Numbered from the stretch's first letter, positions 1,744-56,276 are shown. The stretch is DNA of 64,000 nucleotides from Candidatus Krumholzibacteriota bacterium (GCA_963727455.1 CAVSGG010000001.1:66743-130742); one strand, 5' to 3'. The notes: generated by a model from the sequence alone, not told the origin. A program made the numbers and translations.

Positions 1744-1746
1744 GCC

Positions 1747-2646: not shown

Positions 2647-2654
2647 GGCGCGTT

Positions 2655-2663
2655 ACTCTAGCA
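2655..2663 (-). promoter_or_regulatory. Extended -10 promoter element, near-leaderless transcript
   Basis: Minus strand reads TGcTAGAGT, then 8 nt, then the ATG at 2646; no SD sequence. Confidence 0.45.
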
Positions 2664-2735
2664 GAGAACTTCTCTTCCGCGGTAGCGCCGCCCCACCCGC
2701 AGGCGCTAGTCTCCACGCGCGCCCCGGGAGGTAGC

Positions 2736-3974
2736 ATGGCCACCACGAAGATCAAGGATCCGGTCGAAGGGCTCATCGACCTGGACCGCCTGCCCGGCGT
2801 TCCCGCGGCGGCGGTGCGCGCCCTCATCGATACCCCTGAACTCCAGAGGCTGCGCCAGGTCAAGCAGCTCGGGTTCACCGAACTCGTCTACCCCGGCGCC
2901 ACCCATACGCGCTTCGCCCACAGCCTGGGCGCCTTCCAAGGTTGCCAGCGTACGATGCGCCAGCTGCGCGCTGCGGGAGCCGAGATCCCTCCCGAGTGGT
3001 TCGTCGCCACGGCCCTGGCCTGTCTGCTGCACGACCTGGGCCACGGTCCCTTCAGCCACACCTTCGAAGCCGTGGTGCAGCGCAAGCACGAGGAGTGGAC
3101 TCGAGAACTGGTGACGGGAGGCCCCGCCGTCCCCATGCGCCTCGAGGACATTCTTCCGGGCACGCTGGATCGCGTGCATCAGCTCCTGAGGGGAGCGGTG
3201 GAGGATCCGGAACTCGCATGGCTGGGAGACCTGGTGTCCAGCGCGCTCGACTGCGATCGCATGGACTATCTGCGGCGGGATTCCCTGCACACCGGCACGC
3301 GCTACGGTGCGATCGATCGGGACTGGCTGATCCGGGCCATGGTCCCCAGCCGCGACCGCCGCGCCATCCTGGTGGTCGAGCAGGGACGCAGCGCGGTGGA
3401 ACAGTATCTGATCGGGCGCTACCACATGTTTCAGAACGTCTACTTGCACAAGACCGGGCGTGGCTTCGAGACGGCCTTCCGCGGGCTGTGCCGCCGCTTG
3501 CAGATTCTCGGCCCCGGTGCGACTCCCAGAGAGTGCCGGGTCATGCACATCCTGCACGAGGAAACCCTCGGCTTGGAGCGGTATCTCACTCTGACCGACG
3601 CCCACTTCCTGGTCGATCTCGACGCCCTGGTTGCGCACGAAGACTTGACCGTCCGCGTCCTGGCCCAGGCGCTGCGCTTCCGCCGTCCCTTGCGCAGTAT
3701 CTCCTCCGACGGAGGGAGCGAAGCGCTCCAGGAGGAATTCGAGCGGCAGCGCGCTCGCGCGGACAAGGCCGGCCTGGATCCGGACTGCGCAGTGTGGGTG
3801 GATCGCGCAGCCGACGTTCCCTACCGCCCCTACTCACCGAGCGAGGGACGCAAGGGTCTGCGCGTGCGCACCGCATCCGGCCGTTTGGTGGACATCACCG
3901 AACTCAGCCCCACCCTCCGGGTGCTCGCGGAGCCGGTGGTGGTGCACCGGCTGTACTGGGTGGCTTTGCAGTGA
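2736..3974 (+). CDS. HD-domain phosphohydrolase (SAMHD1/YwfO-like dNTPase family)
   Basis: QRLRQVKQLG, HTRFAHSLG, LLHDLGHGPFSH, LDCDRMDYLRRD; SD GGGAGG. Confidence 0.88.
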   Translation: MATTKIKDPVEGLIDLDRLPGVPAAAVRALIDTPELQRLRQVKQLGFTELVYPGATHTRFAHSLGAFQGCQRTMRQLRAAGAEIPPEWFVATALACLLHDLGHGPFSHTFEAVVQRKHEEWTRELVTGGPAVPMRLEDILPGTLDRVHQLLRGAVEDPELAWLGDLVSSALDCDRMDYLRRDSLHTGTRYGAIDRDWLIRAMVPSRDRRAILVVEQGRSAVEQYLIGRYHMFQNVYLHKTGRGFETAFRGLCRRLQILGPGATPRECRVMHILHEETLGLERYLTLTDAHFLVDLDALVAHEDLTVRVLAQALRFRRPLRSISSDGGSEALQEEFERQRARADKAGLDPDCAVWVDRAADVPYRPYSPSEGRKGLRVRTASGRLVDITELSPTLRVLAEPVVVHRLYWVALQ

Positions 3975-4052
3975 AAACGCCCCCCGCCAGTGGCGGAGGG
4001 CGTTCCTCTCATCGATGGCGAAGGCTCTTGCCTCCGCGAATTCAGCGGCAGC

Positions 4053-5794: not shown

Positions 5795-6952
5795 CTACTG
5801 TTCTCCCTTCTCGCCCAAGGCCTCGGCGGTGGCGGTGTGGATGACCTTGCCCTCGTGAAGGACGGTACATCCTCCGACGGCGGCGTCCTCGAGATCGACG
5901 CGGAAATTGCCCTCGCGATCTGTCATGTCGCTGATGAGGTTCAGAATGTTCTTGGCGTACATCTCCGAGGAGTTGACGGGGACGAGCCCCGGAACGTTCA
6001 TCATCCCAACCAGAGTGACCCCGTGTTTCACCACGGTCTCGCCGGGAACGCTCAGTTCGCAGTTTCCGCCGGTCTCGACTGCGAGGTCGACGATGACCGA
6101 ACCCACCCGCATGTTCTCCACCATCTCCGCGGTAACCAGCTTGGGGGCGGGCTTGCCCGGGATGGCCGCGGTGGTGATGACCACGTCGGCCTGTTCGATG
6201 CGTGCCTTCACCAGCTCGCGTTGCCTGGCGAGGAACTCCGCGCTCTGCTCCTTCGCATAGCCGTCCTTGTCCTCGACCTCTTGGGCATTCTCGTCGGGGG
6301 GAACCTCGATGTACTTTCCTCCCAGACTCTCCACCTGCTCCTTCACCGCCGGCCGCACGTCACTCACCTCGACGATCGCGCCCAGGCGCTTGGCCGTGGC
6401 GACCGCCTGCAGCCCCGCCACTCCGGCGCCCAAGATGACCACGTGCGCCGGCTTGATGGTCCCGGCCGGGGTTGTCATCATGGGGAAGATCTTCGGCAGA
6501 TGGTTGGCGGCCATGATCACGGCCTTGTAGCCGGAGATGTTGGCCTGGGAGCTGAGCGCGTCCATCTTCTGGGCGCGCGTGATACGCGGCATGCAATCCA
6601 TGGCCAAACAGCTCATCTTCTTGGCCTGGAGGGATCTCACCAGATCCAGATTGCGCGTGGGCCAGAGGAAGGAAATCAGCAGGCTACCCTGCTTCATCTG
6701 CTCCGCTTCCTCTTGCTGTGGCGGATGAAATTTGAGCACCAGATCGGCGGCGCCATAGCCCGCGGGGGCATCGGTCACGATCGTCGCCCCGGCCTTGCGG
6801 TAGGCGTCGTCGCTGATATAGGCCCCCTCACCGGCCTGGCTTTGAACCGAAACCGCGAAACCGGCCTTGATCAGCCGCGCCACGGTGTCAGGCGTCGCCG
6901 CCACCCGGGTCTCGCCAGGGTGTGTTTCCCTGGGAACGAAGGCGGTCAACAT
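5795..6952 (-). CDS. pntAA: NAD(P) transhydrogenase subunit alpha part 1 (NAD-binding domain)
   Basis: ETRVAATP, RITRAQKMDALSSQ, GAGVAGL, DLAVETGGNC; start refined to MLTAFVP. Confidence 0.94.
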   Translation of the reverse strand: MLTAFVPRETHPGETRVAATPDTVARLIKAGFAVSVQSQAGEGAYISDDAYRKAGATIVTDAPAGYGAADLVLKFHPPQQEEAEQMKQGSLLISFLWPTRNLDLVRSLQAKKMSCLAMDCMPRITRAQKMDALSSQANISGYKAVIMAANHLPKIFPMMTTPAGTIKPAHVVILGAGVAGLQAVATAKRLGAIVEVSDVRPAVKEQVESLGGKYIEVPPDENAQEVEDKDGYAKEQSAEFLARQRELVKARIEQADVVITTAAIPGKPAPKLVTAEMVENMRVGSVIVDLAVETGGNCELSVPGETVVKHGVTLVGMMNVPGLVPVNSSEMYAKNILNLISDMTDREGNFRVDLEDAAVGGCTVLHEGKVIHTATAEALGEKGEQ

Positions 6953-7090
6953 GAAGATTCCGTCCCGGTTAAAGGAATAGATCTGCAGCGATTTGCGCCC
7001 AAGAAGATAGTCGGACCCCTCCGGGGGTCCAAGACAATCCGTGGACGGCGTTTCGAATTCGAATCCGGCCCTTTTGACGCGCTGGCTTCC

Positions 7091-7120
7091 TTGACACCCC
7101 CCAAGGCCCGCGATTAGCTT
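7091..7120 (+). promoter_or_regulatory. sigma70 promoter for tRNA-His/hisS
   Basis: TTGACA-N18-TAGCTT ending 12 nt before the tRNA. Confidence 0.6.
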
Positions 7121-7132
7121 AGACGCCCACGT

Positions 7133-7209
7133 GCTGGCGTAGCTCAGCTGGTTAGAGCACCAGATTGTGGATCTGGGGGTCGGTGGTTCGAATCCACCCG
7201 CCAGTACCA
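7133..7209 (+). tRNA. tRNA-His(GTG), atypical: no encoded G-1, G1:U72, discriminator A73, CCA encoded
   Basis: Acceptor stem GCTGGCG/CGCCAGT then A-CCA; D arm GCTC/GAGC; anticodon arm CCAGA-TTGTGGA-TCTGG; T arm GGTGG-TTCGAAT-CCACC. Confidence 0.96.
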
Positions 7210-7250
7210 TGCATCCTCCCTCGGCCTTTGAGGGCCCCGAACTCTTGCTC

Positions 7251-8678
7251 ATGGCAAAGCGTATCGAAGCCAAGCTCGCCAAGGGAATGCGCGACATCGT
7301 CGGCGCGCCGATTCGGCGTAGACAGCGTATGATCGAGACCGTTCAGGGTGTGTTCGAGCGCTTTGGCTTCCAGCCCCTGGAAACGCCCGTCATCGAGGCC
7401 CGAGAAGTACTCGTGGGCGCCAAGGCCGGCGAGACCTCCCAGCGCATCTTCAGCTGGCGGCACGAGGAGGAGGATGCGGAGCTGGGGCTCCGTTTCGATC
7501 TCACCGTGCCTTTGGCGCGCTTCGTGGCCGCGCACCCCGAGCTGCGGCGGCCCTTCAAGCGCTATCAGGTGGGACCGGTCTTTCGGGTGGATAAGCCGGG
7601 CGCGGGGCGCTTTCGCGAATTCCTGCAGTTCGACATCGATACGGTGGGCAGCCGGTCCATGTTGGCCGACGCTGAGATCCTGGGCGCGATGAGCGAGGCT
7701 CTGAGAGCGCTGGGGCTGCCCTCGCACACCATTCGCTGGAACCACCGCGGCGTACTGAACGCCGCCCTGCGCCGCGCGAAGATCGAGCCCAGCCGGGCCG
7801 CCGGCGTCATTCGCATTCTGGACAAGGAAGACAAAATCGGAATCGAAGGGGTACGGGCGGAACTGGGAGGAGGGCGCATCGACGCGGAATCGGGCGCACC
7901 CATCCCCGGCCTCGGCCTCCCGGAGCCACAGATCCACGCACTGGGCGAGTTCCTCGAGCTGCATGACGAGACGGATGACGGGCTGGTCGAGAAATCCAAG
8001 CGCTTCTTGGCGGGCACGAAAAGCGCCGAGGCGGCACTGAAGGAAATCGACGAACTCAGGGCCCATCTGGAAGTCATGGGTTGCGCCGAGCGGGTGCGCT
8101 TCTCGCCCAATCTCGCGCGCGGGATGGACTACTACACCGGCCCCATCTTCGAGGCCACGCTCGATGAGCTGCCCGACTATGGATCGATCATGGGCGGAGG
8201 CCGCTACGACGAGCTCGTCTCCCGCTTCAGCGGCGAGCAGTTGCCCGGAGTGGGGGCCTCGATCGGGGTCGACCGCCTGCTGGCTGCGCTCGATCAACTC
8301 GAGAGCCGCAAGCAGAGCGGGACGGTCACCGAAGTGCTCGTTACCACGATGGACCGCAAGCTTACCCTTACTTACCAGGCCCTGGTTCGCGAGCTGCGCG
8401 AGGCCGGGCTGAATGCGGAAATCTATCTGAATCCCAAGGCGCGTCTGGGTGATCAGCTCAAGTACGCGTCCTTCTGGCAAATTCCCTATGCCGTCATCGT
8501 GGGCGAGGACGAGCTGAAGGAAGAAAAGGTCACGATCAAGGATCTCGAGGAAGGCGCGCGCGCGGCTTCCAAGATGGACGATCGGGCCGAGTGGGTCGAA
8601 CAACGTCCCGGACAGTTCTCATTGGATCGGGCGAGTTTGATTCCGACCCTCAAGAAGCTTCTCGGGCACGGAGGCTGA
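7251..8678 (+). CDS. hisS: Histidine--tRNA ligase (divergent alphaproteobacterial/Caulobacter-like type)
   Basis: KGMRD, LRFDLTVPLAR, motif 2 FRVDKPGAGRFREF, RGMDYYTG, GGGRYD, GASIGVDR; C-terminal anticodon-binding domain. Confidence 0.95.
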   Translation: MAKRIEAKLAKGMRDIVGAPIRRRQRMIETVQGVFERFGFQPLETPVIEAREVLVGAKAGETSQRIFSWRHEEEDAELGLRFDLTVPLARFVAAHPELRRPFKRYQVGPVFRVDKPGAGRFREFLQFDIDTVGSRSMLADAEILGAMSEALRALGLPSHTIRWNHRGVLNAALRRAKIEPSRAAGVIRILDKEDKIGIEGVRAELGGGRIDAESGAPIPGLGLPEPQIHALGEFLELHDETDDGLVEKSKRFLAGTKSAEAALKEIDELRAHLEVMGCAERVRFSPNLARGMDYYTGPIFEATLDELPDYGSIMGGGRYDELVSRFSGEQLPGVGASIGVDRLLAALDQLESRKQSGTVTEVLVTTMDRKLTLTYQALVRELREAGLNAEIYLNPKARLGDQLKYASFWQIPYAVIVGEDELKEEKVTIKDLEEGARAASKMDDRAEWVEQRPGQFSLDRASLIPTLKKLLGHGG

Positions 8679-40429: not shown

Positions 40430-40548
40430 CACGCCAATGGGTATTGCTGAGAAAGGAAGCGCCGGTACGGGCGATTTCAGCCGACTTACTAATAAAGGAT
40501 GGCGGCTCTCACTTGTCGCGCTGACGGGGGCGGATTTAAGCTCTGTCC

Positions 40549-41658
40549 ATGGATTCCAACACGCCGCGCGAGCCGGACTCTTCGCCTCGCGCTTCTCATT
40601 CTACTCGTTGCATTTGCATTACTGCTGGTGTCGGCGCTGCACTACGGTACGCCGCGCGGAGCTTCTTACCATGCGCTGCATGATGTTTGGCGACGACTGT
40701 ATTACGTACCCATCGTCCTGGGCGCCTTTCACTACGGATTGAAGGGCGGAGTACTCACCGCACTCGCGGCGACGCTTCTCTACCTTCCCCACGTCCTCTT
40801 TCAATGGGGGGGCATGGCCGGCGGGAATCAGTATTTGGAAATTATCATGTTCAACGTGATCGGTTTGGTGACGGGAACTCTCGCGGGAGAGCTGCGCGTC
40901 CAAGCGCGAGGAAGCGCGCGTTGCTTATGAGCGACTCGCCGCGAGCTTCGAGCGCAGCAAAGAGGCCGAGCGTCTGGCCGCCATGGGTCAGCTCTCCGCC
41001 TCCTTGGCCCACGAAATCCGCAATCCTTTGGCGAGCCTCAAGGGCAGCATGCCCATTCTTACCGAGGGCATCCCGAGCGAGGATTCGCGGCAGGAATTCG
41101 TGCAGATCGTCGAGAAGGAGATCCAGCGACTGGAGGGGCTTACCGGCCAATTTTTGAACTATGCCAAGCCCCCTGGTCCGAGCCTGGGCGGAGGACGATC
41201 TGGACGCGATGGTCCTGGGGGTGGCGCGCCTGGTGGAGAAACAGGCGCAACGACATCAGGTGAAGATCGAGACGGCATTTGGCCGGGAATCTTCCTCTGT
41301 CGCGCATGGACTCTTCGCGCATGCGTCAGGTGATTCTCAATCTGGCGCTCAATGCCGTCGAGGCCATGCCCCAAGGGTGGAGTTTTGCGCTTCATGACCG
41401 AACACGATCCTCGCGCCGGAGCTCTGGTGCTCGTGGTCGAGGATACGGGGCCGGGAATCGATGCCCAAGGTGCGCTCCCATCTATTCGAGCCCTTCGTTT
41501 CCACCAAAGAGAAGGGCACCGGACTCGGTCTGGCCGTCGTTTACCAGTGCGTACAGCTGCACCAAGGGGAGATCGAGGTGGGAGAATCCGAAGAAGGTGG
41601 CGCGCGCTTCACCATCAGTCTGCCTCTTTATCCCGACGAAGCGGCTCCCGGAGCTTAG
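40549..41658 (+). CDS. Sensor histidine kinase with His-containing intramembrane input domain; about 6 frameshifts (sequencing error or pseudogene)
   Basis: Consecutive fragments give LHYGT..YHALHDVWRRLYYVPI TM region, H-box AHEIRNPL, N-box NLALNAVEA, G1 DTGPGI, F/G2 FEPFVSTKEKGTGLGL. Confidence 0.82.
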
Positions 41659-41740
41659 AGCTGCGCGCAATTCCCTGGAATCCACCTCCTCGGTTTTCTA
41701 TTGTTGCTCTCAGAGATTCCCCATAACCCAGGAGAGCACG

Positions 41741-42985: not shown

Positions 42986-43113
42986 TCAGGCTCTGCGGCC
43001 GCTGAATTTCACGCTCCATAGCTTTCCCGCTGCTTGCTCGAGCTGCGCGTCGAGTACTCCCGCGTGTTCGGGCGCTTGACCGGCGCCGCTTGGCGGACGA
43101 TGCTGGGTCCACC

Positions 43114-44506
43114 ATGACTGCCGCCCGCATCTTTCTGGTCGACGACGATGAGAGTCTGCGTCGGGTGACCTCCTATCACCTCGAGCAGGCCGGATTCGCC
43201 GTGACCCGGCTCGCCTCGGCCGAGGAGGCGCTCCGGGCTCTCGAAGCGGCCGAGCGCAAGCTTCCCTCATCGGCCTTCCCCCAGATTCTCATCACGGACG
43301 TGCGCATGCCCGGCATGGACGGGCTCAGTCTCTTGCGACTCTTGAAAGAGCGCTGGCCCCAGCTGGGAGTGATCGTGATCACGGCCCACGGCAGCGTGGA
43401 GGACGCGGTTGACGCCATGCGTGCGGGCGCGCACGACTACCTCTTGAAGCCCTTCGAGCACGAGACGCTGCGGCTCTCGGTGGACAAGTCGCTGCGCCTG
43501 AGCGAATTGCTGCGGGAAAATCGGCGTCTGCGCGCTCTCGCGGGCGATCGGCTTCGCCTGGAGAACATGATCGCATCGAGCGAGGCCATGGACGAGCTTC
43601 TACGGATGGCGGCGCAGGTGGCTCCCCGCACCACCACCGTTCTTCTTTTGGGCGAGAGCGGCACCGGGAAAGAAGTTTTGGCGCGCGCCATCCATCACGC
43701 CAGCGAACGACGCGAGGGTCCCTTCGTGGCGATCAGCGCCGGCTCGCTCCCCGAATCCCTGATCGACAGCGAACTCTTCGGGCACCGCAAGGGCGCGTTC
43801 ACCGGAGCCGATCGTGATCGCAAAGGGAAGTTCGAACTGGCCGAGGGGGGCACGCTCTTCTTGGACGAGATCGGTGAGTTGCACCCCGAACTTCAGGTGA
43901 AGCTCCTGCGGGCCCTGCAAGAGAGGGAAGTCGACCCCCTTGGCGCCAGTGCCTCGGTCAAGGTCGACGTACGGGTCATCGCGGCCACCAATCGCGACCT
44001 GGAGGCGATGGTGTCCGAGGGCAGCTTTCGCGAAGACCTCTACTATCGCCTCGCCGTCGTCACCCTGGTTCTTCCTCCTCTGCGCGAACGACGCGACGAC
44101 ATCCTGCCTCTTATCGCGCCATTTCGCGGCGCGGATTGCCGCGGCGAACGATCAGTCCGTTCCTGCGATCACCGCCGAGGCGGAACGGGCGCTGAACGCA
44201 TACGACTGGCCGGGTAACGTGCGTGAACTGGAAAACGTCATGGAACGCGCGTTGGCGCTTCACCCGGAAGGTCCCATCGAAGCGCAGGACCTTCCCGCCC
44301 GCTTGCGGAGCCAGGAGAACGCTTCGCCGCTGAGCATCGCTCTGCCCGAGGATGGACTCGACCTCACGGCGCTGGAGAAGGAGCTCATCCAGCGCGCTCT
44401 GGTGAAGTGCAAGGGAAACCGCAGCGCGACCGCGCGCTATCTGGGGCTGACCCGCAATACCCTCAACTACCGCCTGGAGAAGTACGGCATCAGTGATCCG
44501 GACTGA
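43114..44506 (+). CDS. sigma54-dependent NtrC-family response regulator (one frameshift near 44120)
   Basis: Receiver LVDDD/TDVRMP/KPF; GESGTGKE; GAFTGA; LFLDEIG; WPGNVREL; Fis-type HTH. Confidence 0.9.
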
Positions 44507-44523: not shown

Positions 44524-44919
44524 TTAGAGCTTGTCGATGGCGGCCTGCAGCTTGGCGCGCACTTGCTCCACCAGCTCGTTCATGCCCTCGTTCTGCACGA
44601 TCTTGAAGGCCTCTCTGGGATCGACGGCGGACACCGTCGTGCCCCCCTCCTTGCGCGCGGCCACGATCACGTTACAGGGGAGGAGAAGTCCGATGCCCGG
44701 CTCGGCCAAAAGAGCCTGGTGCGCGAAGGGCGGATTGCAAGTGCCCAGGATGAGATAGGGCGGGAAGTCCACATCGAGTTTCTTCCTCAGGGTCGCCCGC
44801 ACGTCGATCTCGCAGAGTACGCCGAAGCCCTCTTCCTTGAACGCGGCGGTGACTCGCTCGACGGCTTCGTCGAACTCGGTGTCGGGTAACTCACGGGTGA
44901 TGCCGTACGAAGGATTCAC
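44524..44919 (-). CDS. DUF302 domain protein
   Basis: GFGVLCEID, ILGTCNP, GLLLPCN; GTG start after AGAGG. Confidence 0.85.
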   Translation of the reverse strand: MNPSYGITRELPDTEFDEAVERVTAAFKEEGFGVLCEIDVRATLRKKLDVDFPPYLILGTCNPPFAHQALLAEPGIGLLLPCNVIVAARKEGGTTVSAVDPREAFKIVQNEGMNELVEQVRAKLQAAIDKL

Positions 44920-45393
44920 GATCGCCTCTTTGGTTGGGGTGGAAGCCGTGTCGCCCAATCTAAGCCCTCCATGTCTTCGGGCAAGCTGCCGGCGCTTCGC
45001 AGGGAGGGAGCGGCCGGGAGCCCGAATCGCGAAATCGAGAATGTGAAGGAGAGCTCCAAGAAGTCCGAATTGGAGCGATGCAATGCGGACTTTCACCATT
45101 TCTCGCTATTGCGACGGCGAGAAATCGGAACTCGCCCCCCCAGGGCCGAGTTCAAGAGGGGTCCATGGGGCAAGAGATGGCGCCCAGTCACCTGGATCCC
45201 CGGAGGACCCTCATGCTGCAGAAGCCATTCGATGCTTCGACTCCTTCCCCCCTGCGGTTTTGCACTCCGAGTTCCAAGCTTGCGGTTCGCGCGAGGCGAA
45301 GCGTGAAACTGGTGAACGCCTCCAAATCCCCGTGCAAGACATTCCCCAGAGGCGGCAATTCAGCCGCAGCGACGATTGGAAGGAGCGGACACG

Positions 45394-45978
45394 ATGAATA
45401 GACGGAGAATCGTATTCTTCGCGACCATGATCATTCTCTTCCCGGTGCTGGCATTGGCTGACACCCAAGCGATGCCGATGCAGGCCGCCGTGGCGCACTA
45501 CGCGGCCATGGCGAGAACGCTGTCGCAGGATTCCACCGAGGGGATCCAGGGACATGCCACCGCGCTGCTCGCCTTCATGGATGACCATGCCGACATGATG
45601 AAGTCGATGAAGGGTCAGAACATGAAGGAGATGCACAAGAAGATGATGAGCGATGACCCCGCGGCCGAAGCGAAGACGGACGTGCAGAGTCCGGACATGC
45701 AGATGCGCGCTGCGCTGACCACCCTGAGTTCCAAGGACCTCGGTCTGGAAAAGGCCCGTAGCGCCTTCGAGGATCTCAGCGCGCAGTTCATTCCCATGGC
45801 GCAAAAGATGTATCACCAGAGCGGGAATGCTCCCACCTGGGTCGTCATGAACTGTCCCGTGGTCAAAGCGGACTGGATTCAGACCAAAGGCGACGTTCGC
45901 AATCCCTATCTGGGCTCGAAAAAGCTGAGCTGCGGCAAGCAGATCGGCGTGTTGGGCGCGGAAGAAGCGCACTCCTAA
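45394..45978 (+). CDS. Exported Met-rich DUF3347-like metal-binding protein
   Basis: Signal peptide; Met-rich segment; CPVVKADW...VRNPYLG..KLSCG. Confidence 0.75.
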   Translation: MNRRRIVFFATMIILFPVLALADTQAMPMQAAVAHYAAMARTLSQDSTEGIQGHATALLAFMDDHADMMKSMKGQNMKEMHKKMMSDDPAAEAKTDVQSPDMQMRAALTTLSSKDLGLEKARSAFEDLSAQFIPMAQKMYHQSGNAPTWVVMNCPVVKADWIQTKGDVRNPYLGSKKLSCGKQIGVLGAEEAHS

Positions 45979-46068
45979 TTCGCTGAGGCCGTGATGCAAG
46001 GAGTTCGCATGACCCGCTAGAACCTTGCTTTGCGGCGAGTGGGGCAAACGAAGGACCCCACCGAAAGA

Positions 46069-46101
46069 AGGCCGGCCCCCCAGGGGGCCGGCCTCCCTTT
46101 T
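46069..46101. terminator. Bidirectional intrinsic terminator
   Basis: AGGCCGGCCCC-CCAG-GGGGCCGGCCT flanked by A/T runs, between convergent genes. Confidence 0.7.
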
Positions 46102-46139: not shown

Positions 46140-47195
46140 TCAGTGCTGACCGCTGGATCCGCCACTGCCGCTCCCGTCCATACCGCCACCGCCACCACCC
46201 ATGCCGCCACCGTCTCCGCCCATGCCACCTCCACCTTGCATGCCATCACCATGGTGCCCGCCACCCATCACTTCATCCACCGGGCTTCCACCGCCGTAAT
46301 CGTGCCCCATTTGGCGCGGTCCCATCCAACCCTGGCCCTGCATGGCCTGCATCATCTGACCCATCTGCTCGCGCTGCTGGATCCGCTGCTGCAATTCGTT
46401 GCAGAGCTGATTCTCGTCGCCGCCGTTCATGTGAGCCGCCATGAACATCTGACCGATCTGCCGCATCTCGCGACCCTCATAGCCCTGTTGCAGAGCCTCG
46501 CCGCAGAGTCCGAGCGCGCGTTCGGAAGGAAGCCCCAACTCTTTGAGCTCGGTGGCGGTTTCGCTCGCCGCCGCGAGATCGACGAGCGTACAGGAACCAT
46601 CCCGCAGACGATCCCGGGCCCGGTCGCGCAGCTGATCCAGTTCCGCTTCGTTCAGACCGCGCCACATGTTCAGGGCCACGCCGCGTTCCAGCTGACGCCG
46701 CACGCGGGGACCTCCCAGCTCCTCGATCCCTTCTTCACGCGCCTGATTCAAGTACTGGTGGGCGTGGCGGGTGAAGCCCTCCATGCGAGTGACCGCCCCT
46801 TCCACCGCCGCTTCGGGCGCATGCTTCATGGAACCTTCGGCGATCTTGTCGCAGAGGAGGTCGGTGGGCATTCCCTTGCGCGCGAGTTCCAGCACGGAGT
46901 TCTGCATTTTCAGGCGAGCCTGCGCGGAGTATTGCTGCGCATCTTCGGGAAAGAGAACCTCGAGCTGATCCTGCGGAATCTGAAGCTCGACACAATCCTT
47001 CAGATTCTGGCGCAGGCGATCGCGCTGCTGGTCGCTCGTCTTGTCGTACTCGTTCACCCGGTCCATGTAGCGGGTGAGAAGCTGGTCGCGGGTCTGAAGC
47101 TGATCGCCGGGCGACTGCGCCCAGGCCACGCTGCTCGTGAGAACGAGCAGGGCGAACAGAGCCAGGCTCACGAGGGTGTGAAAACGCTTTTTCAT
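46140..47195 (-). CDS. Secreted alpha-helical hypothetical protein with Met/Gly/His-rich tail
   Basis: Signal peptide ending AWA|Q; SD AAGGA; tail MGGGHHGDGMQGGGGMGG. Confidence 0.75.
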   Translation of the reverse strand: MKKRFHTLVSLALFALLVLTSSVAWAQSPGDQLQTRDQLLTRYMDRVNEYDKTSDQQRDRLRQNLKDCVELQIPQDQLEVLFPEDAQQYSAQARLKMQNSVLELARKGMPTDLLCDKIAEGSMKHAPEAAVEGAVTRMEGFTRHAHQYLNQAREEGIEELGGPRVRRQLERGVALNMWRGLNEAELDQLRDRARDRLRDGSCTLVDLAAASETATELKELGLPSERALGLCGEALQQGYEGREMRQIGQMFMAAHMNGGDENQLCNELQQRIQQREQMGQMMQAMQGQGWMGPRQMGHDYGGGSPVDEVMGGGHHGDGMQGGGGMGGDGGGMGGGGGGMDGSGSGGSSGQH

Positions 47196-47256
47196 GACGG
47201 AGTTCCTTTCCTGGTTCCGGCGTGACCGTGGGCTCCCGGTTCGCCGCTCTCAGAAA

Positions 47257-47287
47257 ATGAGACGCTCAAAGCTCTGGCGCGTTACGA
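47257..47287 (-). promoter_or_regulatory. ECF sigma promoter (copy 2)
   Basis: Minus strand TCGTAAC-N16-CGTCTCAT; matches the copy at 50188-50218. Confidence 0.7.
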
Positions 47288-47347
47288 GAAAAGTGGGTCC
47301 GGAGAGCTTCCCCGAGATTTCCTCCACGGCCTGGTCGATCCCCTTCC

Positions 47348-48675
47348 TCAAGGAATCTCCAAGAGGCCATTCTGGCCGCCGAAGCCATCGTCCACCCGCA
47401 ACACGCTCTCCGGCGGAGTCAGAGCCTTCCCGTCCACGAAATAGAGGTACTGGTACTGGCCAGGCGGAATCTTCACCGTCAGCTGCCACCAGCCGTCTCC
47501 CTCGGGTTTCAGCTCGTATTCGCTCTGCCGCCAGCCATTGAAATCGCCGCTGACACTGACCCGGTGGGCCTTCGGGGCCAGCACGCGAAACACCGTTCCC
47601 TCCGCCACTTGCTCGGACCGGGAGGGGTGACACTCCTGAAATCCGAAGTCGAGGGCAATGGCGGGCGCGAGCTCTGGGGCGACGAGGAGCCCAAACGCAG
47701 AGCGAATTCGATGCGATCGGTATCCTGTTGGAGTCCCTGCGGATCGGTATAGCTGCCCTGGGAGTAGCGCAGGCTCAAACTGGCTTTGGAAACGATCTCG
47801 TAGCTGGCGCCTACGCCCCACTGCTCGTAGTGATCGTCGTCGAGAGAAGCTGCGCGCTTGCCGAAGCTGCGGTCCTGGCGTCCGTAATCCAGGTCCAGCC
47901 GAAGGCGCCGTTGCGGCAGCCAGCGCAAGCTGAGCTCGCTGAGGATTGCGTTGCCGTCGTAGAGGGGATCCACGGAGTTCGTGCTGCGCCCGACGAAGGA
48001 AGCTCGCGCGAAGATTCTCGGAGTGAGCGAGGCGGTGACGACCAGTCCCAGATTGAGGCGAGCCTCCCGGTAGCTGGTGGACTGCCCCGAGTCGTTCAGA
48101 GCGTCCGCGCGAGGGTAGGAGGTCCCGCGTCCGCCAACGAAGCCTTCCACGCTGAGACGATTGAGCATGTAGCCGATGCCGACCTCTCCCCCGCCTCCAA
48201 TGCGGCGAAGAGTGCTCAGCTGGGTGTCGTTGAAGTAGTCGCCCGAAAGCGAGAAGCGCAAACGCGTCCGTACGGAGAGGGCATAGAAGAGATCGCCCCA
48301 GGCCACCTGCCCGTAGAGAGTGCGATCCTCGTCATTGAGAAAGCGCTCCGCGGTGGCGCGCATGCCCAAATGCAGATCGAGCCGCGGCGTGGGTTGACGC
48401 GTCGCTTCGATTCCCGGCGAAAAGTCCAGGAACGCCCCTCCGGGAACCACGATGGCGGCCCCGGCCGGGTCGAGCAGATAGTTGGTTTCGTGACCTCCCG
48501 AGACCCAGACGAAGGGTGAGAGTGTCCAGGGGGTTTGCGCCATGACGGGCGCGGCACCGAAAAGGAGCACGAATGCGGTCAGAAACGAGCCCGCAATGAC
48601 CGCGAGGGAGCCGGTCCCACGATGCCGCGCCCAAGAGTTCTCGCCCGAAGCGAAGTGGTAATCAATCCCCTGCAC
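47348..48675 (-). CDS. Predicted outer-membrane beta-barrel with C-terminal CBM48/AMPK-beta-type glycogen-binding domain (one frameshift near 47660)
   Basis: Signal peptide; alternating amphipathic strands; second frame gives VSVSGDFNGW...IPPGQYQYLYFVDG...DDGFGGQN. Confidence 0.68.
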
Positions 48676-48716
48676 GACCTCGCCCCCCCAGACCGAGTGC
48701 CAATGATCGTTCTTGC

Positions 48717-49481
48717 TCAGGCGCCCAATTCAAGCACGGCGTTACGATTCCCGAATCCGTCATCGCGAGTAAGGGGAGCCAAGGGATCGGTGACCCAACG
48801 CTTGCCGTCCTCGACGAACATGTACTCGTAGGCTCCCGGAGGGAGCACGAGATTCATCGTCCACACGGCGCCATTTTTCTGCATGGGAAGACCGTGCGCG
48901 TTCCATCCGTTGAAAGAGCCGGCCACCGTGACCGATTGCACATCCTCGTGCTGGGGCGCGTAAATGAGATGCACGACGCGAAAGCTCTCCGCGTTCGAGG
49001 CAGCGCCCGCGTTCACCAAAGAGGCGGACTCCGCTCGGGGTTGTTGCGCCAAATTCAGCGTGGCGGGGAGCTGCGCGATCCGCGCGGAGGAAGCCGGGGC
49101 TTCGATGCGCTCATTCGAACCGGAGACCGTCAAGCGGCCCAAGACGAAGGCCAGAACGAGGACCGCGGCCACCGCCAGGCCCTGGCGCCAGGAAAGCGAG
49201 AAGCCGCGCGCGCGCGTACCGGGCAGTTTCTGCGAGGCGCGCGAAGGCCGTTGCGCCGCGAGCTGCGCGGGCTCCGAGGCGATACGGTCCATTACCGCGT
49301 CGGCAAATCCCAGAGGGGCTTCGGACTGCTTCAGTTGATGGGCGCGGGCCAGGATGCGCTCGTAATCGTGCAGTTCGCTGGCCAATTCCGGGTCCTCTTG
49401 CAGCCGCTGCAAAAGCGCGCGGCCCTCGTTTTCGCTGAGTTCGCCGTCGAGATAACGAGCCAAGAGTGCGTCCATGTCCAT
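48717..49481 (-). CDS. Anti-sigma factor with TM helix and extracytoplasmic CBM48 domain
   Basis: LARYLDGEL...APLGFADAVM anti-sigma-like N-terminus; one TM; VAGSFNGW...LPPGAYEYMF...DDGFGNRN. Confidence 0.8.
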   Translation of the reverse strand: MDMDALLARYLDGELSENEGRALLQRLQEDPELASELHDYERILARAHQLKQSEAPLGFADAVMDRIASEPAQLAAQRPSRASQKLPGTRARGFSLSWRQGLAVAAVLVLAFVLGRLTVSGSNERIEAPASSARIAQLPATLNLAQQPRAESASLVNAGAASNAESFRVVHLIYAPQHEDVQSVTVAGSFNGWNAHGLPMQKNGAVWTMNLVLPPGAYEYMFVEDGKRWVTDPLAPLTRDDGFGNRNAVLELGA

Positions 49482-49527
49482 TCTCCTCTCACCCACATGC
49501 CCAAAGGTCGGGCGTTTTGTGCCGCGG

Positions 49528-50127
49528 TCAGGATCGTTTTGCGCGAAGCGAGCGCGGGGTCGGCCGCTCGCGCAAGAACTCGCGCAGGAGCTTGCGCGCC
49601 CGGTGCGATCGCACCTTGAGCGAGCCCACGCTGCTTTTGGTCAACGCGGCGATTTGCTCGTAGCCCAGTTCCTCCAAGTGCCGGAGCACGAAAACTTCTC
49701 GATAGTCCGCGGGCAAGCTCTCGAGCCCCTTTTGCAGCCGCGCATTGAACTCGCTCTCGCTCAGTTCAGCGAGCGGGTCGAAGGCGCTCCGGGTTTCCTC
49801 GAGCTTCGCCTCGTGTCCGCGGCGCTCCTCCAGCTCGTTCAAGGAGATGATCTTCGTGCGCTCCTTACTGCGCTGCCGGTCGCGAGCGGCGTGGAGGGCG
49901 ATCTGAACCAGCCAGGTGCTGAAGCGCGCCTCCCCCCGAAAGCCGCTCAGCGAGCGATAGGCCCGCACGAAAGTCTCTTGGGCGAGTTCTTCCGCACTGT
50001 CGGGATCGTTCACCAGGCGCAGCAGCATCCCGTAGACCGTATTTTGGTGCCTTTCGACCAGATGGCGAAATGCCTCGGTGTCGCCGCCGCGCACGCTCTC
50101 CACGATCTGTTCGTCGCTTCGGGTCAT
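49528..50127 (-). CDS. ECF (sigma24-type) RNA polymerase sigma factor
   Basis: AEELAQETFVRAY, FSTWLVQIA, YEQIA...VGSLKVRSHRAR. Confidence 0.92.
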   Translation of the reverse strand: MTRSDEQIVESVRGGDTEAFRHLVERHQNTVYGMLLRLVNDPDSAEELAQETFVRAYRSLSGFRGEARFSTWLVQIALHAARDRQRSKERTKIISLNELEERRGHEAKLEETRSAFDPLAELSESEFNARLQKGLESLPADYREVFVLRHLEELGYEQIAALTKSSVGSLKVRSHRARKLLREFLRERPTPRSLRAKRS

Positions 50128-50187
50128 CGATGTCCCCGTTCTGAGCGCTCGGCCGTGCGAGGCCGAACCGAAGGTGGGCCTCTGTGG

Positions 50188-50218
50188 ATGAGAAGCCGTC
50201 AGCGAGCGAAAGTTACGA
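50188..50218 (-). promoter_or_regulatory. ECF sigma autoregulatory promoter (copy 1)
   Basis: Minus strand TCGTAAC-N16-CTTCTCAT, 60 nt upstream of the sigma ATG. Confidence 0.68.
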
Positions 50219-50255: not shown

Positions 50256-52645
50256 TCACAGCTCCTGCCGGCGCAGGCGCAGTGCGTTGCTGATGACGGA
50301 GACCGAGCTGAAGCTCATGGCCGCCGCGGCGATCATGGGATTCAAGAGCAATCCGAACACGGGGTAGAGGACGCCGGCCGCCAGGGGGATTCCCAGCGTG
50401 TTGTAGCCAAAGGCGAAGAAGAGATTCTGCCGGATGTTGCTCATGGTGAGCTCGCTCAGGCGACGGGCCCTGAGAATGCCGCTCAGCTCGCCCCTGACCA
50501 GCGTGACGGCAGCGCTCTCCATGGCGACGTCGGTACCGGTGCCCATGGCGATTCCCACGTCCGCCCGCGCGAGGGCGGGCGCGTCGTTGATGCCGTCTCC
50601 CGCCATGGCCACGATTCTTCCCTGCGCCTGGAGTTCCCGCACCACTTCCTCTTTGCGGTCCGGGAGCACGCCGGCCTCGACTTCGGTGATCTGCAGTTCC
50701 GACGCCACCGCGCGCGCGGTCACCGGATTGTCGCCGGTGAGCATGACGACCCGCATTCCACTCTCGCGCAGTTCCTTGATCGTCTCGGTCGCACCTTCTT
50801 TGATCGGATCAGCCACCACGAGCAGCCCCGCCAGGGCGCCATCGAGAGCGACGAACATCACGGTCTGGCCCTTCGAACGCAGCGAGTTCACGCGGGAATC
50901 ATCCTGAGTTCCCCCCACGCCCAAATCCTGCAGAAGGCTCTCGTTGCCCAGGGCGACATTCCTGCCCTGCACTCTGCCGCTGACCCCCTGACCGGTATGA
51001 CTTTGAAAGTCCTTGGCCTCCGCCAGCTCGAGTTCACGCTCACGGGCCGCGTCGACGATTGCCTGAGCCAGGGGGTGCTCGCTGCCGCGCTCGAGACTGG
51101 CGGCCAGGCGCAATACTTCCTCTTCGGGATGGCCACGCAGTGGGTGCACCGCGACCAGGCGCGGCTTGCCCTCGGTCAGAGTCCCGGTCTTGTCCACGAC
51201 CAGAGTGTCGACCTTGCGCAAATGTTCGATGGCCTCGGCATTCTTGAAGAGCACGCCCACGGTGGCGCCCTTTCCCGTCGCGACCATGATCGACATGGGA
51301 GTGGCCAGTCCCAGGGCACAGGGACACGCGATGATGAGCACTGCCACCGCGTTGATGAGCGCGTAGACCATTCTGGGCTCGGGGCCGACGAGGGCCCAGA
51401 CGACGAAGGTCACGATGGCGGCCAAGATGACGCTGGGGACGAAGTACGCGGCCACCCTGTCCGCGACTCTCTGGATGGGAGCGCGGCTGCGTTGGGCGGC
51501 CGCCTACCATCTGGACGATTTGCGAGAGGAGAGTTTCGCTGCCCACCTTCTCCGCCCGAATCACCATGGACCCGGTGGCGTTGAGGGTGGCGCCGATGAC
51601 CGAGTTGCCCGGCCCCTTCTCCACCGGCATGGGTTCGCCGGTGACCATGCTCTCGTCGACCGAGCTACGCCCCTCCTCGACGCTTCCGTCGATCGGGATC
51701 TTTTCTCCGGGACGTACCCGCAAACGATCGCCGAGCTCGACTTGGTCGAGCGGAATCTCCTCGTCGTTGCCGCTGGAATCGATGCGTCGCGCGGTCTTGG
51801 GCGCGAGGCCCAAGAGACTTCGGATGGCGGCGCCGGTGCTGCTGCGCGCGCGCAGTTCGAGCACTTGTCCCAAAAGGACCAAAGTGGTGATCACTGCGGC
51901 CGCCTCGAAGTAGACCGCGACGGTCCCTCCCTCGCCCCGAAAGGAGGCCGGGAAACGCGAGGGGATGCTCATGGCCACCACGCTGTAGCTCCAGGCCACC
52001 CCCACGCCGAATCCGATGAGAGTGAACATGTTCAAGGAGAAATGAAGGATCGAGTTCCAGGCGCGCACCAAGAGGGGCCAGCCGCAGTAGAGAACCACCG
52101 GCGTGCTCAAGGCGAATTCCAAAATGATGCGCGCCCTGGTGGGTGATGAGTCCGCCGAAGGCGTGGGACACGAAGTCGCCGGCCATGGCGCTCAGCAAGA
52201 CGGGCAGACTCAGGGCCGCCGCGATCCAGAAGCGGCGCCTCATGTCCAGGTACTCCGCGCGGCTAAAGTCGTCCTCCTCCTCGCTCACTTCCATCGGCTC
52301 GAGCGCCATCCCGCATTTGGGACAGGAACCGGGGCCATCGTTCACCACTTCCGGGTCCATGGGACAGGTGTACTTCGCGCCCGAGGCGGCCGCTCTCGCC
52401 TTCGACTTGGCGGGTCCATCGCCCCCTGCAGCGTGTCGTGCGGGTTCGTGGTGCGCGGCATGGGACTCATCCGCGGTGCGCGACTTGAGGTACTTCTCGG
52501 GCTCGGCATCGAATTTCTGTTTGCAGCCGCCGCAGCAGAACTCGTAGCGCTGGCCCTCGTGCACCGAATGCGGATTGTCCGGGTTCGCAGTGATCGTCAT
52601 CCCGCAAACGGGATCTTTCATCGTCTTGGAGGTCTCTTCCCTCAT
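50256..52645 (-). CDS. copA: Cu(I)-translocating P1B-type ATPase with YHS and heavy-metal-binding domains (frameshifted)
   Basis: KDPVCGM/CCGGC, CPMDP..CPKCGM, TGEP, ACPCALG, DKTGT, SEHP, GDGIND, YN and MSFSS; spread over three ORF fragments. Confidence 0.9.
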
Positions 52646-55600
52646 GCTAGTTCTCCGACTTTCCTGAACTTCTGCCCCAATTCGGCTTTCCAGCAATAGA
52701 GTACAGGTACGATGAATTGGGTGATGAGCGCCAAGACCATTCCCCCGAAGGAGGGGATGGCCATGGGCACCATGATGTCGCTCCCGCGTCCCGTCGAACT
52801 CAGAACCGGTAGCAGGGCCAAGACGGTGGTCGCCGTGGTCATCAGGCAGGGACGAATCCGGCGCGTGCCCGCCACGACCGTGGCCTCACGAATCTCCGCC
52901 ACCGACTGTGGCCGGTGCTGGCGAAAGGACTGTTGTAAGTAGACTGCGACAACCACTCCGTTGTCACTGGCGATTCCGAAGAGCGCGATGAATCCCACCC
53001 AGATGGCCACGCTGAGATTGATGGGATGGACCTGAAAGAGGTCGCGCAGATTCGTGCCGAAGACCGAGAAGTTCAAGAACCAGGGCTGGCCGTAGAGTCC
53101 GATCATGAGAAAGCCGCCGGCCCAGGCCACGAAGATTCCCGAGAACACCATCAGGGTGGTGGAGACCGAGCGGAACTGGAAGTAGAGGATGAGGAAGATG
53201 AGGAAGAGGGCCAGAGGCAAGACGACCTTCAGGCGTCTCTCGCTGCGCACCTGGTTCTGGTAGCTGCCGGCGAAGGAATAGCTCACACCCTTGGGCAGAA
53301 CCAGCTCACCGGAGTCGATCTTCCCCTGGATGATTTTCCTCGCGTCGTTCACCACCTCCACCTCGGCATGTCCGGGCTTCTTGTCGAAGAGCACGTAGCC
53401 CACGAGGAAGGTGTCCTCGCTCTTGATTACCTGGGGGCCGCGCACGTAGCGGATCTTCGCGAGCTGGATGAGGGGAATCTGCGCGCCCTGGGGTGAGGGC
53501 ACGAGAATGCCGCCCAGACTCTCGATGCTGTCGCGCAGTTCGCGCTGGTAACGCACGCGCACCGGATAGCGCTCGCGGCCTTCCACCGTGGTGGTGATGC
53601 GTTTGCCACCAATCGCGACTTCGATCACGTTCTGCACGTCTTGCACGTGCAAGCCGTAGCGGGCAATTTCATCGCGGTCGATTTCGATCTCCAGGTAGGG
53701 CTTGCCCACGATACGATCGGCGAACACCGCCGAGGGTTCCACCGAGGGGACCGTCTTGAGAATCCCTTCGAGCTTCAGGCCGACATCCTGAATGGTCTGA
53801 AGGTCGGGACCCTTCACCTTGATGCCCATGGGGGCGCGCATCCCGCTCTGCAGCATGACGATGCGCGCCGCGATGGGCTGTAACTTGGGTGCCGAGGTGG
53901 TGCCGGGAATCTTGGCGACCTTGACGATCTCATTCCAGATGTCGTCGGCGGAATGGATGGAGTCGCGCCACTGGCGATAGGGACGCCCGCGGGAGTCGGG
54001 AATGAGCTGTCCGGCGTCATCGCGCACATAATCACCGTCGCGGTACTTGAAACGCAGGCGATGTCCGTTCACGTCGACGCGGTACTCGGGGAGATAGTTG
54101 ATCACCGCTTCCACCATCGAAATGGGGGCGGGATCGAGCGGAGTGTCGGCGCGGCCGATCTTCCCTACCACCGACTCCACTTCGGGAATCGACTGAATCG
54201 CCTCGTCGAGCTTGGCCACGACGTCGAGCGATTCCCCGATGGACGCGTGCGGCATGGTAGTGGGCATGTAGAGGAAGCTGCCCTCATCCAGATCGGGCAT
54301 GAACTCCTTGCCCAGCCCGCGCCACACCTGCCAACCCAGGACCATGAGAATGACGGGCAGGCTCAGAAAGAGCAGCTTGTGCGAGAGGCACCAGCGAAGA
54401 ATGCGGCCGTAGGCGCGGATGAAGAACGAGAAAAGAAAGAGCAGTCCCAGGATGATGGCGAAGAGGAAGATGGCATTGCGCAGCGAAGCCCTTGGCCGGA
54501 CCCAGCGGAAGCCAGGTGGAGGTCAAGAGCAGGCCGACCGCGATCAGAACGATCCAGTTGGCGGAAGCGGACAGCGCGCGGCGCACTCGCGTGAAGAGTC
54601 TCCCGGGCGCACCGGACTTCCAGGCGAGCACCGGCTTGAAGAACGCAGCCGGTTTGCGCTGAGCGCTCGGGCTTGAAGGGCAAGCGTAGTTTGCCGCGTC
54701 CTCCCAAGAGCATGTGGGCGAAGGCCGGCATCAGGGTCAGAGAGACGATGAGCGAGGCGACCAGCGCGAAGGTCTTGGTGTAGGCCAGGGGCTTGAAGAG
54801 TTTTCCTTCGGCGGCGGTCATGGTGAAGACGGGCAGAAAGCTCACCACCGTGGTGGCGACTGCCGTGACCACTGCCCCGCCGACTTCGCTGGCCGCGCCA
54901 AAGATGATCTCTCTCTTGTTCGCGCCGGGAGGAGCTTCGGCCAAATGGCGCAACATGTTTTCGCTCAGGATCACCCCCATGTCGACCATGGTGCCGATCG
55001 CGATCGCGATGCCCGAAAGTGCGACGACGTTGGCGTCGACGTGAAAGAGCTTCATGGCGATGAAGGCCATGAGCACCGCCACCGGCAAGAGCCCCGAGAC
55101 CAGCATGCTGGTCTTCAAGTGCCGCACCATGAAGATCACCACGATGATGGTGATCAGGATTTCCAGAATCAGGGCTTCCTGGAGCGTCCCCAGGGTCTCG
55201 TGGATGAGACCGGTGCGATCGTAGAAGGGGACGATGGTAACTTTCGACACCGTGCCATCGGGGAGGGTCTTGGAGGGCAGCCCGGGGGCGATCTCGGCGA
55301 TCTTCTTTTTCAGGCGATCGATGGTGGCCAGCGGATTCTCGCCGTAGCGAACCACGACCACTCCGCCCACCGCTTCGGCGCCGCCCTTGTCCAGGGCGCC
55401 ACGGCGCAGTGCCGGCCCCAGACTGACGGTGGCGATGTCCTTGATGGTGACCGGAGTGTTGTCCACTTGGGTGACGACCGACTTTTCGATGTCCCCCAGG
55501 TTCTTGATGAAGCCGATGCCGCGGATCACGTACTCGGCCTTGTTTACTTCGATGGTGCGCGCGCCCACGTCGACGTTGGATTCGCGCACCGACTGAAACA

Positions 55601-56276
55601 CTTGCTCGAGCGTGACCCCATAGGCGCGCATCGCATCGGGATCGACGTCGATCTGGTACTCCTTGACGAAGCCACCCACCGAGGCAACTTCCGAGACTCC
55701 CTCCACCCCCTGCAGGGCGTAGCGCACGTACCAGTCCTGCACCGAGCGAAGTTCGTCGAGATCCCAGCCCCCGGCGGGATTTCCCTGAGGATCGCGCCCT
55801 TCCAGGGTGTACCAGTACACCTGTCCCAACGCCGTTGCATCCGGACCGAGTTGCGGTTGCACCCCTTGCGGCAGGGTTCCCGCCGGCAGACTGTTCAACT
55901 TCTCCAAGAGGCGGGAGCGCGACCAGTAGAACTCCACGTTTTCCTTGAAGATCACGTAGACGGTGGAGAAGCCGAACATCGAATAGCTGCGGATGGTCTT
56001 CACGCCCGGAATTCCCAAAAGGGCAACCGTGAGCGGATAACCGATCTGGTCCTCGACGTCCTGTGGACTGCGGCCGGGCCAGGCGGTGAACACGATCTGT
56101 TGGTTCTCCCCGATGTCGGGGATGGCGTCGACGGGAACCGGATCACGCGGCAGGCCGTGCGCGTTCCAGGGGAAGGGCGCCACCATGATACCCCAGACGA
56201 TCACCGCCAAAAGGCCCAGAACCACCACCAGTTTGTTGTCCATGCAGAAGCGGATGATGCGGTCGGTCAGACTCAC
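52642..56276 (-). CDS. cusA: CusA/CzcA family heavy-metal RND permease (frameshifted near 54480-54660)
   Basis: DAIPDIGENQQIV, GPDATALGQ, AIAIGTMVD, FMPDLDEG, RIRPCLMT. Confidence 0.9.

Follow-up and report, generated by a model that had tools for sequence, protein, structure and literature searches.

Extracytoplasmic function (ECF) sigma factor systems are a major route by which bacteria sense the outside, and most ECF groups have no known signal. ECF sigma factors usually autoregulate. FecA/FecR/FecI systems jointly encode an ECF sigma factor, an outer-membrane barrel that has a periplasmic domain, and an anti-sigma-type regulator in the inner membrane that likewise extends a domain into the periplasm. 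In RcsF-IgaA and NlpE-CpxA, an outer-membrane lipoprotein talks to an inner-membrane signalling protein, and envelope or copper stress is reported when the lipoprotein is misplaced or released. In the sigma-E pathway of E. coli, the periplasmic partner RseB modulates proteolysis of the anti-sigma factor RseA. CnrYXH (nickel/cobalt) and CpxP, Spy and ZraP belong to ECF or envelope-stress systems with a helical periplasmic protein, often beside metal-efflux genes. A catalogue entry for group ECF278 describes an anti-sigma factor with a periplasmic AMPK glycogen-recognition domain, for which glycogen sensing was guessed without an experiment (Casas-Pastor et al. 2021, supplement, PMC7826278). In this study, we analyzed a 64,000-nucleotide stretch from a Candidatus Krumholzibacteriota bacterium (GCA_963727455.1, CAVSGG010000001.1:66743-130742), which as a whole is called the window. 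It holds a module of four genes for an ECF sigma factor, an anti-sigma factor with a CBM48-like domain, a predicted outer-membrane barrel with a second such domain, and a secreted helical protein that we call HEL.

The locus is like ECF278, compared by description, in having an ECF sigma factor and a single-pass anti-sigma factor at position +1 with a periplasmic AMPK glycogen-recognition domain. The available part of the ECF278 entry lists members from Desulfovibrio, Syntrophobacter and Chloracidobacterium only and a GTGAC/GTATA promoter (PMC7826278). This promoter is not matched here: the -35 element differs by one base (GTAAC here), and the -10 element is CGTCTCA or CGTCTAA rather than GTATA. 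The same part of the entry names no second CBM48 domain, barrel, lipoprotein or helical protein. Searches of the literature for ECF anti-sigma factors with a CBM48, AMPK1_CBM or periplasmic glycogen-binding domain, for ECF278 and for Krumholzibacteriota sigma factors returned no experimental work beyond that supplement entry. The module is thus a variant of ECF signalling that was catalogued only in passing before. The initial annotation had called it uncharacterised. This stands in that no group with a known signal was matched, and needs correcting in that ECF278, as far as its entry describes it, was already catalogued.

The locus shares with FecA/FecR/FecI the joint encoding of the three kinds of component. 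It differs in having no 22-strand TonB-dependent receptor, plug or TonB box; its barrel has a predicted 14 strands with the extra domain at the C-terminus and is replaceable by a predicted lipoprotein, and its anti-sigma factor has no FecR family match. Unlike RcsF-IgaA, NlpE-CpxA and RseB-RseA, to which it has no sequence or fold relation, the locus has two partners of the same CBM48-like fold and an ECF sigma factor as output. In no characterised ECF system, to our knowledge, do the two membranes carry matching sensor folds. HEL, unlike CnrX or CpxP/Spy/ZraP, is a predicted helical repeat of about 270 residues, not a four-helix sensor or LTXXQ protein, and has no family or fold match.

Genes and predicted products

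All four genes are co-directional on the minus strand of the window, at the coordinates first reported for them. Their contents and motifs, as the initial annotation had given them, were borne out by the coordinates, Pfam matches and sequence motifs. The first gene (49528..50127, ATG at 50127) encodes a sigma factor of 199 amino acids. Pfam detected Sigma70_r2 (E 8.8e-19) and Sigma70_r4_2 (E 1.6e-13), and region 3 is absent, which makes it an ECF (group IV) sigma factor. It scored 106.6 bits against the NCBIfam sigma70-ECF superfamily model TIGR02937 (cut-off 42.9); RpoE, SigW and the remaining NCBIfam equivalog models were all under their cut-offs.

The anti-sigma gene (48717..49475, minus strand; protein P0001, 252 amino acids) lies directly downstream of the sigma gene. 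Hydropathy and Pfam analysis gave, in order, a probable anti-sigma domain at the N-terminus, a single membrane helix, about 46 amino acids of periplasmic linker and a C-terminal CBM48/AMPK-beta-like domain. The N-terminus matched Pfam RseA_N at 26.8 bits, borderline over the cut-off of 24, and stayed below the cut-off of 100 for the NCBIfam antisigma model, with 42.6 bits. The C-terminus was well over the cut-offs for AMPK1_CBM (E 1e-11, 45.3 bits against 26.8) and CBM_48 (E 3.5e-8, 34.1 bits against 22.4), and the motifs AGSFNGW, PGAYEY and DDGFGN were confirmed in its sequence. Residues 1-60 contain no Cys/His motif of the zinc-binding H-x3-C-x2-C (ZAS) type, zf-HC2 reaching only E 0.039, and no Pfam match to FecR or DUF4880/4974 was obtained. 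Relatives numbered 661 among metagenome proteins. Of the 31 columns that are invariant in the anti-sigma alignment, 22 belong to the C-terminal domain.

The third gene (47348..48675, minus strand) is frameshifted and is read as two frames, 47509-48675 (388 amino acids) and 47348-47821. The long frame showed a weak Pfam OMP_b-brl match; the short frame matched CBM_48 (E 2.4e-13, 50.6 bits) and AMPK1_CBM (40.7 bits) and contains the motifs SGDFNGW, PGQYQY and DDGFGGQN. Besides the window's own open reading frame (ORF), 15 relatives were found, all single proteins of 399-471 amino acids with CBM48 at the C-terminus. Alignment with 11 homologs placed the frame switch between '...PPGP' and 'EQVAEG...', at about 47614, which leaves the gene one base short of the homologs' frame.

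The fold was modelled on the full-length homolog P0124 (74% identity; alignment of 32) rather than on the broken gene of the window. The AlphaFold model (pLDDT 85, barrel mostly >90) has 14 long antiparallel strands, a disordered linker at 295-322 and a beta-sandwich at 325-406. Foldseek returned outer-membrane barrels only (OmpG, CymA, FadL, porins; probability 1.00), and the best target-normalised TM scores were 0.64 for the 14-strand OmpG and 0.56-0.59 for CymA. An even number of strands places both barrel ends, and with them a C-terminal domain, on the periplasmic side. The model therefore supports a third gene product that would consist of a 14-strand outer-membrane barrel, a flexible linker and a periplasmic CBM48-like domain, in line with the barrel fold first proposed. 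The claim that a TonB receptor is missing also held: the P0124 model has no plug, 14 instead of 22 strands and its extra domain at the C-terminus, and Pfam gave no receptor family match.

HEL (46140..47195, minus strand) is a protein of 351 amino acids with an evident signal peptide. Its AlphaFold model (pLDDT 84) is an all-helical alpha-solenoid with helices over 29-297, followed by a disordered Gly/Met/His-rich tail at about 313-351 (pLDDT <50). No Foldseek match in the PDB was obtained at E<=0.001, no PDB sequence match below E 0.38, and no family in Pfam or NCBIfam. The family is nevertheless large: 600 cluster representatives match at E<=0.001, and 194 do so at the stricter E<=1e-10. The best protein-atlas matches (score 0.83) were hypothetical-protein clusters of Krumholzibacteriota and Thermodesulfobacteriota. 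As a lead only, the Thermodesulfobacteriota look-alikes would fit ECF278 belonging to the same system. A universal metal site in HEL was considered and rejected, since the alignment of 57 proteins has no conserved Cys, His or Met column; Cys 202 is kept in 37% of them. In some Nitrospirota loci, a second, weaker HEL-like gene directly follows the first (L027:8457-9251, L028:8578-9369, L032:8562-9281), and the tails of these second genes carry repeats such as GMDHG and DRDHMG.

Conservation, tethering and promoters

A one-genome-per-species scan gave 410 confirmed matches. All locus counts refer to the best 80 loci of these, in which profiles built from alignments of the module proteins were run over all ORFs. 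The sigma factor was detected in 79 loci, the anti-sigma factor with CBM48 in 78, a second CBM48 gene in 75 and HEL in 69; sigma and anti-sigma factors were both detected in 77. The four parts occurred together in 65 of the 80 loci. In 11 of the other 15 the module is cut by a contig end. The remaining four are L056 and L058, which lack parts despite room for them, and L066 and L071 (Myxococcota), which are divergent. The carriers belong to at least eight phyla and include Krumholzibacteriota, Eisenbacteria, Latescibacteria, Fibrobacter-like metagenome-assembled genomes (MAGs), Balneolaceae, Nitrospirota, Vicinamibacterales and Myxococcota. These counts agree with the earlier claim that the genes are conserved together across phyla.

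The second CBM48 domain occurs in three forms. By hidden Markov model, it is fused to a barrel in 24 loci (Krumholzibacteriota, Eisenbacteria, Latescibacteria and Fibrobacter-like MAGs). In 21 loci, mostly Balneolaceae, it is part of a long form of >=370 amino acids; 16 Balneolales-type long forms are homologous across barrel and CBM (hhalign 99.3%, E 1.3e-20, 374 columns). In the other form, found in 30 loci, it is a stand-alone protein of about 120 amino acids, located 5' of the sigma gene in Nitrospirota and 3' of the anti-sigma gene in Vicinamibacterales. A regular expression found a lipobox Cys 10-16 residues ahead of the domain in 26 of these 30 proteins; LPAC in L028 was missed by the pattern. 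The stand-alone domains are thus predicted lipoproteins, in which a lipid anchor would replace the barrel in Nitrospirota and Vicinamibacterales. Since the barrel is swapped for a lipoprotein anchor, what the loci keep is a second, tethered domain of the sensor fold and not a channel. In a weakly resolved tree of the CBM48 domains (88 columns), lipoprotein and barrel copies fell on one branch (SH-aLRT 93), apart from the anti-sigma copies. In barrel-type loci, the median linkers are 37 residues for the periplasmic part of the anti-sigma factor and 29 for the barrel. Compensating linker lengths were examined as a sign of a physical bridge, and this was rejected; the two linkers are both long or both short.

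The regions upstream of the sigma genes share GTAAC, 16 bases, and then CGTCTCA or CGTCTAA. The window contains two matches to GTAAC-N16-CKTCTCA, compared with 0.00 expected from 100 shuffles. P1 (50189..50216, minus strand; GTAAC-N16-CTTCTCA) precedes the sigma gene, about 40 nt past the copA stop, and reads CTTC, which is outside the stricter GTAAC-N16-CGTC form. P2 (47258..47285, minus strand; GTAAC-N16-CGTCTCA) lies between the stop of the barrel gene and the start of HEL. An AAC-type -35 and a CGT -10 element upstream of the sigma gene are those of an autoregulated ECF factor. Because of the position of the motif and the usual autoregulation of ECF factors, promoters of the P1/P2 type presumably depend on this sigma factor. 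Together, the data firmly support that the four conserved parts make up an autoregulated ECF module and that HEL is among its direct targets.

Across the 80 loci and the window, 106 GTAAC-N16-CGTC sites have an ORF downstream: 52 before sigma genes, 25 before HEL and 29 before other genes. These 29 other targets are mostly secreted proteins of unknown function. DUF5666 proteins are under the motif in two loci, one in a Nitrospirota MAG and one unclassified. Motif-preceded lipoproteins without a family were observed in Nitrospirota (L027:4864-5826, L030:2203-3177, L032:4099-5841, L053:4395-5357). Those measured (L027, L030, L032) contain 12-13% Met, with runs such as MMGG and GGMSMMGGG, and are candidates for buffering Cu(I)/Ag(I) or oxidants. 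A protein with DUF4382 and CarboxypepD_reg domains is encoded after HEL in 15 Balneolales-type loci (e.g. L062:10044-10868, L070:10348-11187), and also in L072. Wherever the motif was found (14 loci), this gene is preceded by a separate sigma-type promoter, which makes it a fifth module gene in Balneolaceae.

What the module may report

We propose that this is a self-contained, autoregulated module that reports the state of the envelope through two sister CBM48-like domains, with HEL as its output. We assign this reading a probability of roughly 0.4. The anti-sigma factor keeps its CBM48-like domain in the periplasm, joined by a linker to the membrane helix. The second is tethered elsewhere in the envelope, by the barrel in this lineage and by a lipoprotein anchor in other phyla, and may act as a co-sensor on the domain of the anti-sigma factor, either directly or through a shared ligand. 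A disturbance, such as trouble in outer-membrane or lipoprotein biogenesis, metal or other envelope damage, would free the sigma factor, presumably by proteolysis of the anti-sigma factor. The freed sigma factor would then raise expression of its own operon and of HEL. As a periplasmic helical protein, HEL may be a protective output, a feedback element, or both.

The idea that outer- and inner-membrane-tethered CBM48 domains work as a pair is strengthened by the lipoprotein anchor in Nitrospirota and Vicinamibacterales. The stimulus would be envelope or metal stress rather than a food glucan. In the lineage of the window, copper-type stress is the most likely local trigger, given the copper/silver efflux genes beside the module and the Met/His enrichment of HEL. 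A more specific version is TonB-independent cell-surface signalling, in which paralogous CBM48 domains from both membranes would meet in the periplasm, directly or on an envelope glycan, and membrane integrity or spacing would set ECF activity, with the alpha-solenoid as effector. This version is tentative, and we consider it somewhat unlikely as formulated.

Several observations weigh against the proposed envelope-reporting module. L058, a Gemmatimonadetes MAG (6388-7642), contains only the sigma factor and the CBM48 anti-sigma factor, with more than 6 kb of flank and neither a second CBM48 nor HEL. This is a natural minimal module, and the sigma/anti-sigma pair can exist alone. The strict motif was absent in 10 of 10 loci that have a small CBM48 after the anti-sigma gene, nine of which are titled Vicinamibacterales or Vicinamibacteria, the other being L025. 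In the same weakly resolved 88-column tree, the CBM48 domains of Balneolaceae barrels (L041-L080 rows) nest among the anti-sigma copies, which could reflect domain replacement, gene conversion or an artefact of the short alignment. With medians of 22 and 12 residues, the linkers of lipoprotein-type loci are short. Spanning the periplasm would be feasible at the linker lengths of barrel-type loci and marginal at those of lipoprotein-type loci. In the carrier phyla, the destination of a lipoprotein, outer or inner membrane, is unreadable from sequence. The Met/His enrichment of HEL is not universal, with 1-3% Met in Vicinamibacterales and 3-5% in Balneolaceae. Finally, contact between the two CBM48 domains is something that we infer, and a contact of either with HEL would be hypothetical. 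Co-folding of the CBM48 of the anti-sigma factor (160-252) with that of the window's barrel gave 0.00 in both runs, which had no controls, and speaks neither for nor against binding. Of the interpretation first offered for the locus, the gene content, the barrel, the conservation and the lack of a TonB receptor have stood; the physical link between the CBM48 domains, a glucan ligand and the signal are still conjecture.

Among the alternatives, a dedicated copper/silver system in the lineage of the window survives best, and we regard it as unlikely. It would sense periplasmic Cu(I)/Ag(I) or its damage, and HEL would be a Met/His-rich metal buffer alongside CusCBA and CopA. In the window, the module starts about 40 nt after copA, with cusA upstream and a Met-rich (9%) DUF3347-like protein just downstream. 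CopA/CusA-type genes with 62-93% identity to those of the window also adjoin the module in five Krumholzibacteriota loci (L001, L002, L016, L017 and L019), and this adjacency persists down to about 37-43% anti-sigma identity. In L028, a P1B ATPase with an HMA domain and a two-component system are beside the module. HEL in the window has 6.0% Met in its core and 11.4% Met and 6.8% His in its tail, compared with 2.2% Met in neighbouring ORFs. Across loci, the median Met content is 4.2% for the ordered part of HEL and 2.3% for neighbouring ORFs; the most Met-rich cores are those of L016, L017 and L019 (11-16%), and tails in this lineage contain GGMGG and HH. The Met-rich lipoproteins under the promoter in Nitrospirota (12-13%) point in the same direction. 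However, genes for CopA- or CusA-like proteins were found within 7 kb of the module in no more than 11 of the 80 loci. Five of these 11 are Nitrospirota loci with partial matches of only about 33%, and the two of the five that were analyzed with Pfam, L051 and L053, encode P2-type cation ATPases. The position immediately behind copA that was first described is therefore a feature of the window lineage and a few others, and not of the module as a whole. HEL is not Met/His-rich in Balneolaceae or Vicinamibacterales, where the tails are Gly/Asn/Pro-rich and Pro/Glu/Arg-rich, respectively, and no Cys/His/Met cluster is conserved across the 57 HEL proteins (Cys 202 in 37%). In addition, the anti-sigma factor has no known metal-sensing domain, and in the window the motif does not precede copA or cusA.

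Both CBM48-like domains resemble those of the AMPK beta/isoamylase type in their Pfam and PDB sequence matches, in the first aromatic residue of both copies and in the second of the anti-sigma copy. Unlike those domains, they are periplasmic and membrane-tethered by prediction, have no attached enzyme or kinase, and lack the glycogen-binding Lys of AMPK beta1. A glycan sensor, which we judge quite unlikely, would use the CBM48 of the anti-sigma factor to bind an alpha-glucan (maltodextrin, cyclodextrin or glycogen-like) that comes in by way of the barrel or builds up in the periplasm. The ligand would be captured or presented by the second CBM48, and its binding would control the sigma factor. 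In HMMER searches, the closest solved relatives of both domains were pullulanase, the CBMs of AMPK beta, branching enzymes and SEX4, and both domains are over the Pfam cut-offs for AMPK1_CBM and CBM_48. The FNGW Trp does not vary in either copy, and the anti-sigma copy shows the same constancy for its second Trp (DG.RW) and for the Asn of DDGFG..N. Among 14-strand barrels, the cyclodextrin channel CymA matches the fold well (TM 0.56-0.59), and glycogen sensing is also the guess attached to ECF278 (PMC7826278).

However, the Lys position of AMPK 'qykff' is occupied by Met in the anti-sigma factor and by Leu or Val in the barrel copies (Leu in that of the window). We take the aligned motif residues to be W100, K126 (the 'qykff' Lys) and W133 of AMPK beta1. 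W100G and K126Q abolish glycogen binding by AMPK beta1, and W133L weakens it (PMC6274970). The second Trp is missing from the barrel CBM48 of the window. Judged by these residues, the anti-sigma copy could bind sugar, and binding by the barrel copy is doubtful. Other observations also argue against a glycan sensor. A lipid anchor instead of a barrel in 30 loci means that the system can do without a channel, none of the motif-preceded genes was found to encode a glycoside hydrolase or sugar transporter, and chemolithotroph-type Nitrospirota are among the carriers. A GH13 gene lies within 7 kb in only 4 of the 80 loci, all Balneolaceae, which agrees with the earlier remark that no glucan enzyme is adjacent. 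Nutrient alpha-glucan sensing is unlikely. It is decidedly improbable that the anti-sigma factor senses alone and that the barrel-CBM48 and HEL are mere regulon members without a signalling role: many ECF operons carry targets alongside, HEL is under its own sigma-type promoter and L058 keeps the pair without the other two, but a second copy of the sensor fold stays beside the anti-sigma gene in 75 of the 80 loci, through changes of anchor and position that are hard to explain for unrelated cargo, and DDGFG..N is invariant in both copies.

Surroundings of the module and its significance

Pfam analysis of 23 loci showed that the flanks beyond the module differ between phyla and contain no common neighbour. 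Assigning a function from the flanking genes was accordingly rejected, as the flanks vary between phyla. In L029, a Vicinamibacterales chromosome, ISL3 and rve-type transposase genes lie just 5' of the module (1327-3992). In the window, a terminator-like hairpin (46054..46073, minus strand) lies 3' of HEL; the simple pattern scan that detected it found 4 hairpins in the region compared with 3.4 expected, so that support for a terminator there is weak. Convergent with HEL, the plus-strand gene at 45376-45978 encodes a secreted protein with 9% Met, a borderline DUF3347 match (24.5 bits, cut-off 25.5) and a weak match to the LIC13259 family. Together with a DUF302 protein at 44524-45099, this product fits a copper/silver resistance island.

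The barrel gene is not the only interrupted gene in this part of the window. copA (50256-52696) is split over three ORFs and cusA (52642-56276) over two, and an apparent sigma-54 response regulator and histidine kinase (43090-44506 and 40499-41730) likewise appear as overlapping frames. In the closest relative, L001, copA is one ORF of 802 amino acids and the cusA-type gene one ORF of 1192 amino acids. Because these genes are intact in L001, the splits of the neighbouring genes are more likely indel errors of the assembly than decay.

The module is widespread, with 410 confirmed matches in the one-genome-per-species collection and carriers in at least eight phyla, and its promoter signature defines its targets. 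Cultured carriers exist, among them Fodinibius roseus (DSM 21986) and Aliifodinibius species such as A. salipaludis, and the question is therefore testable. If the proposed reading is true, it would provide the first function for periplasmic CBM48-like domains and for an unnamed helical family of about 600 cluster representatives.

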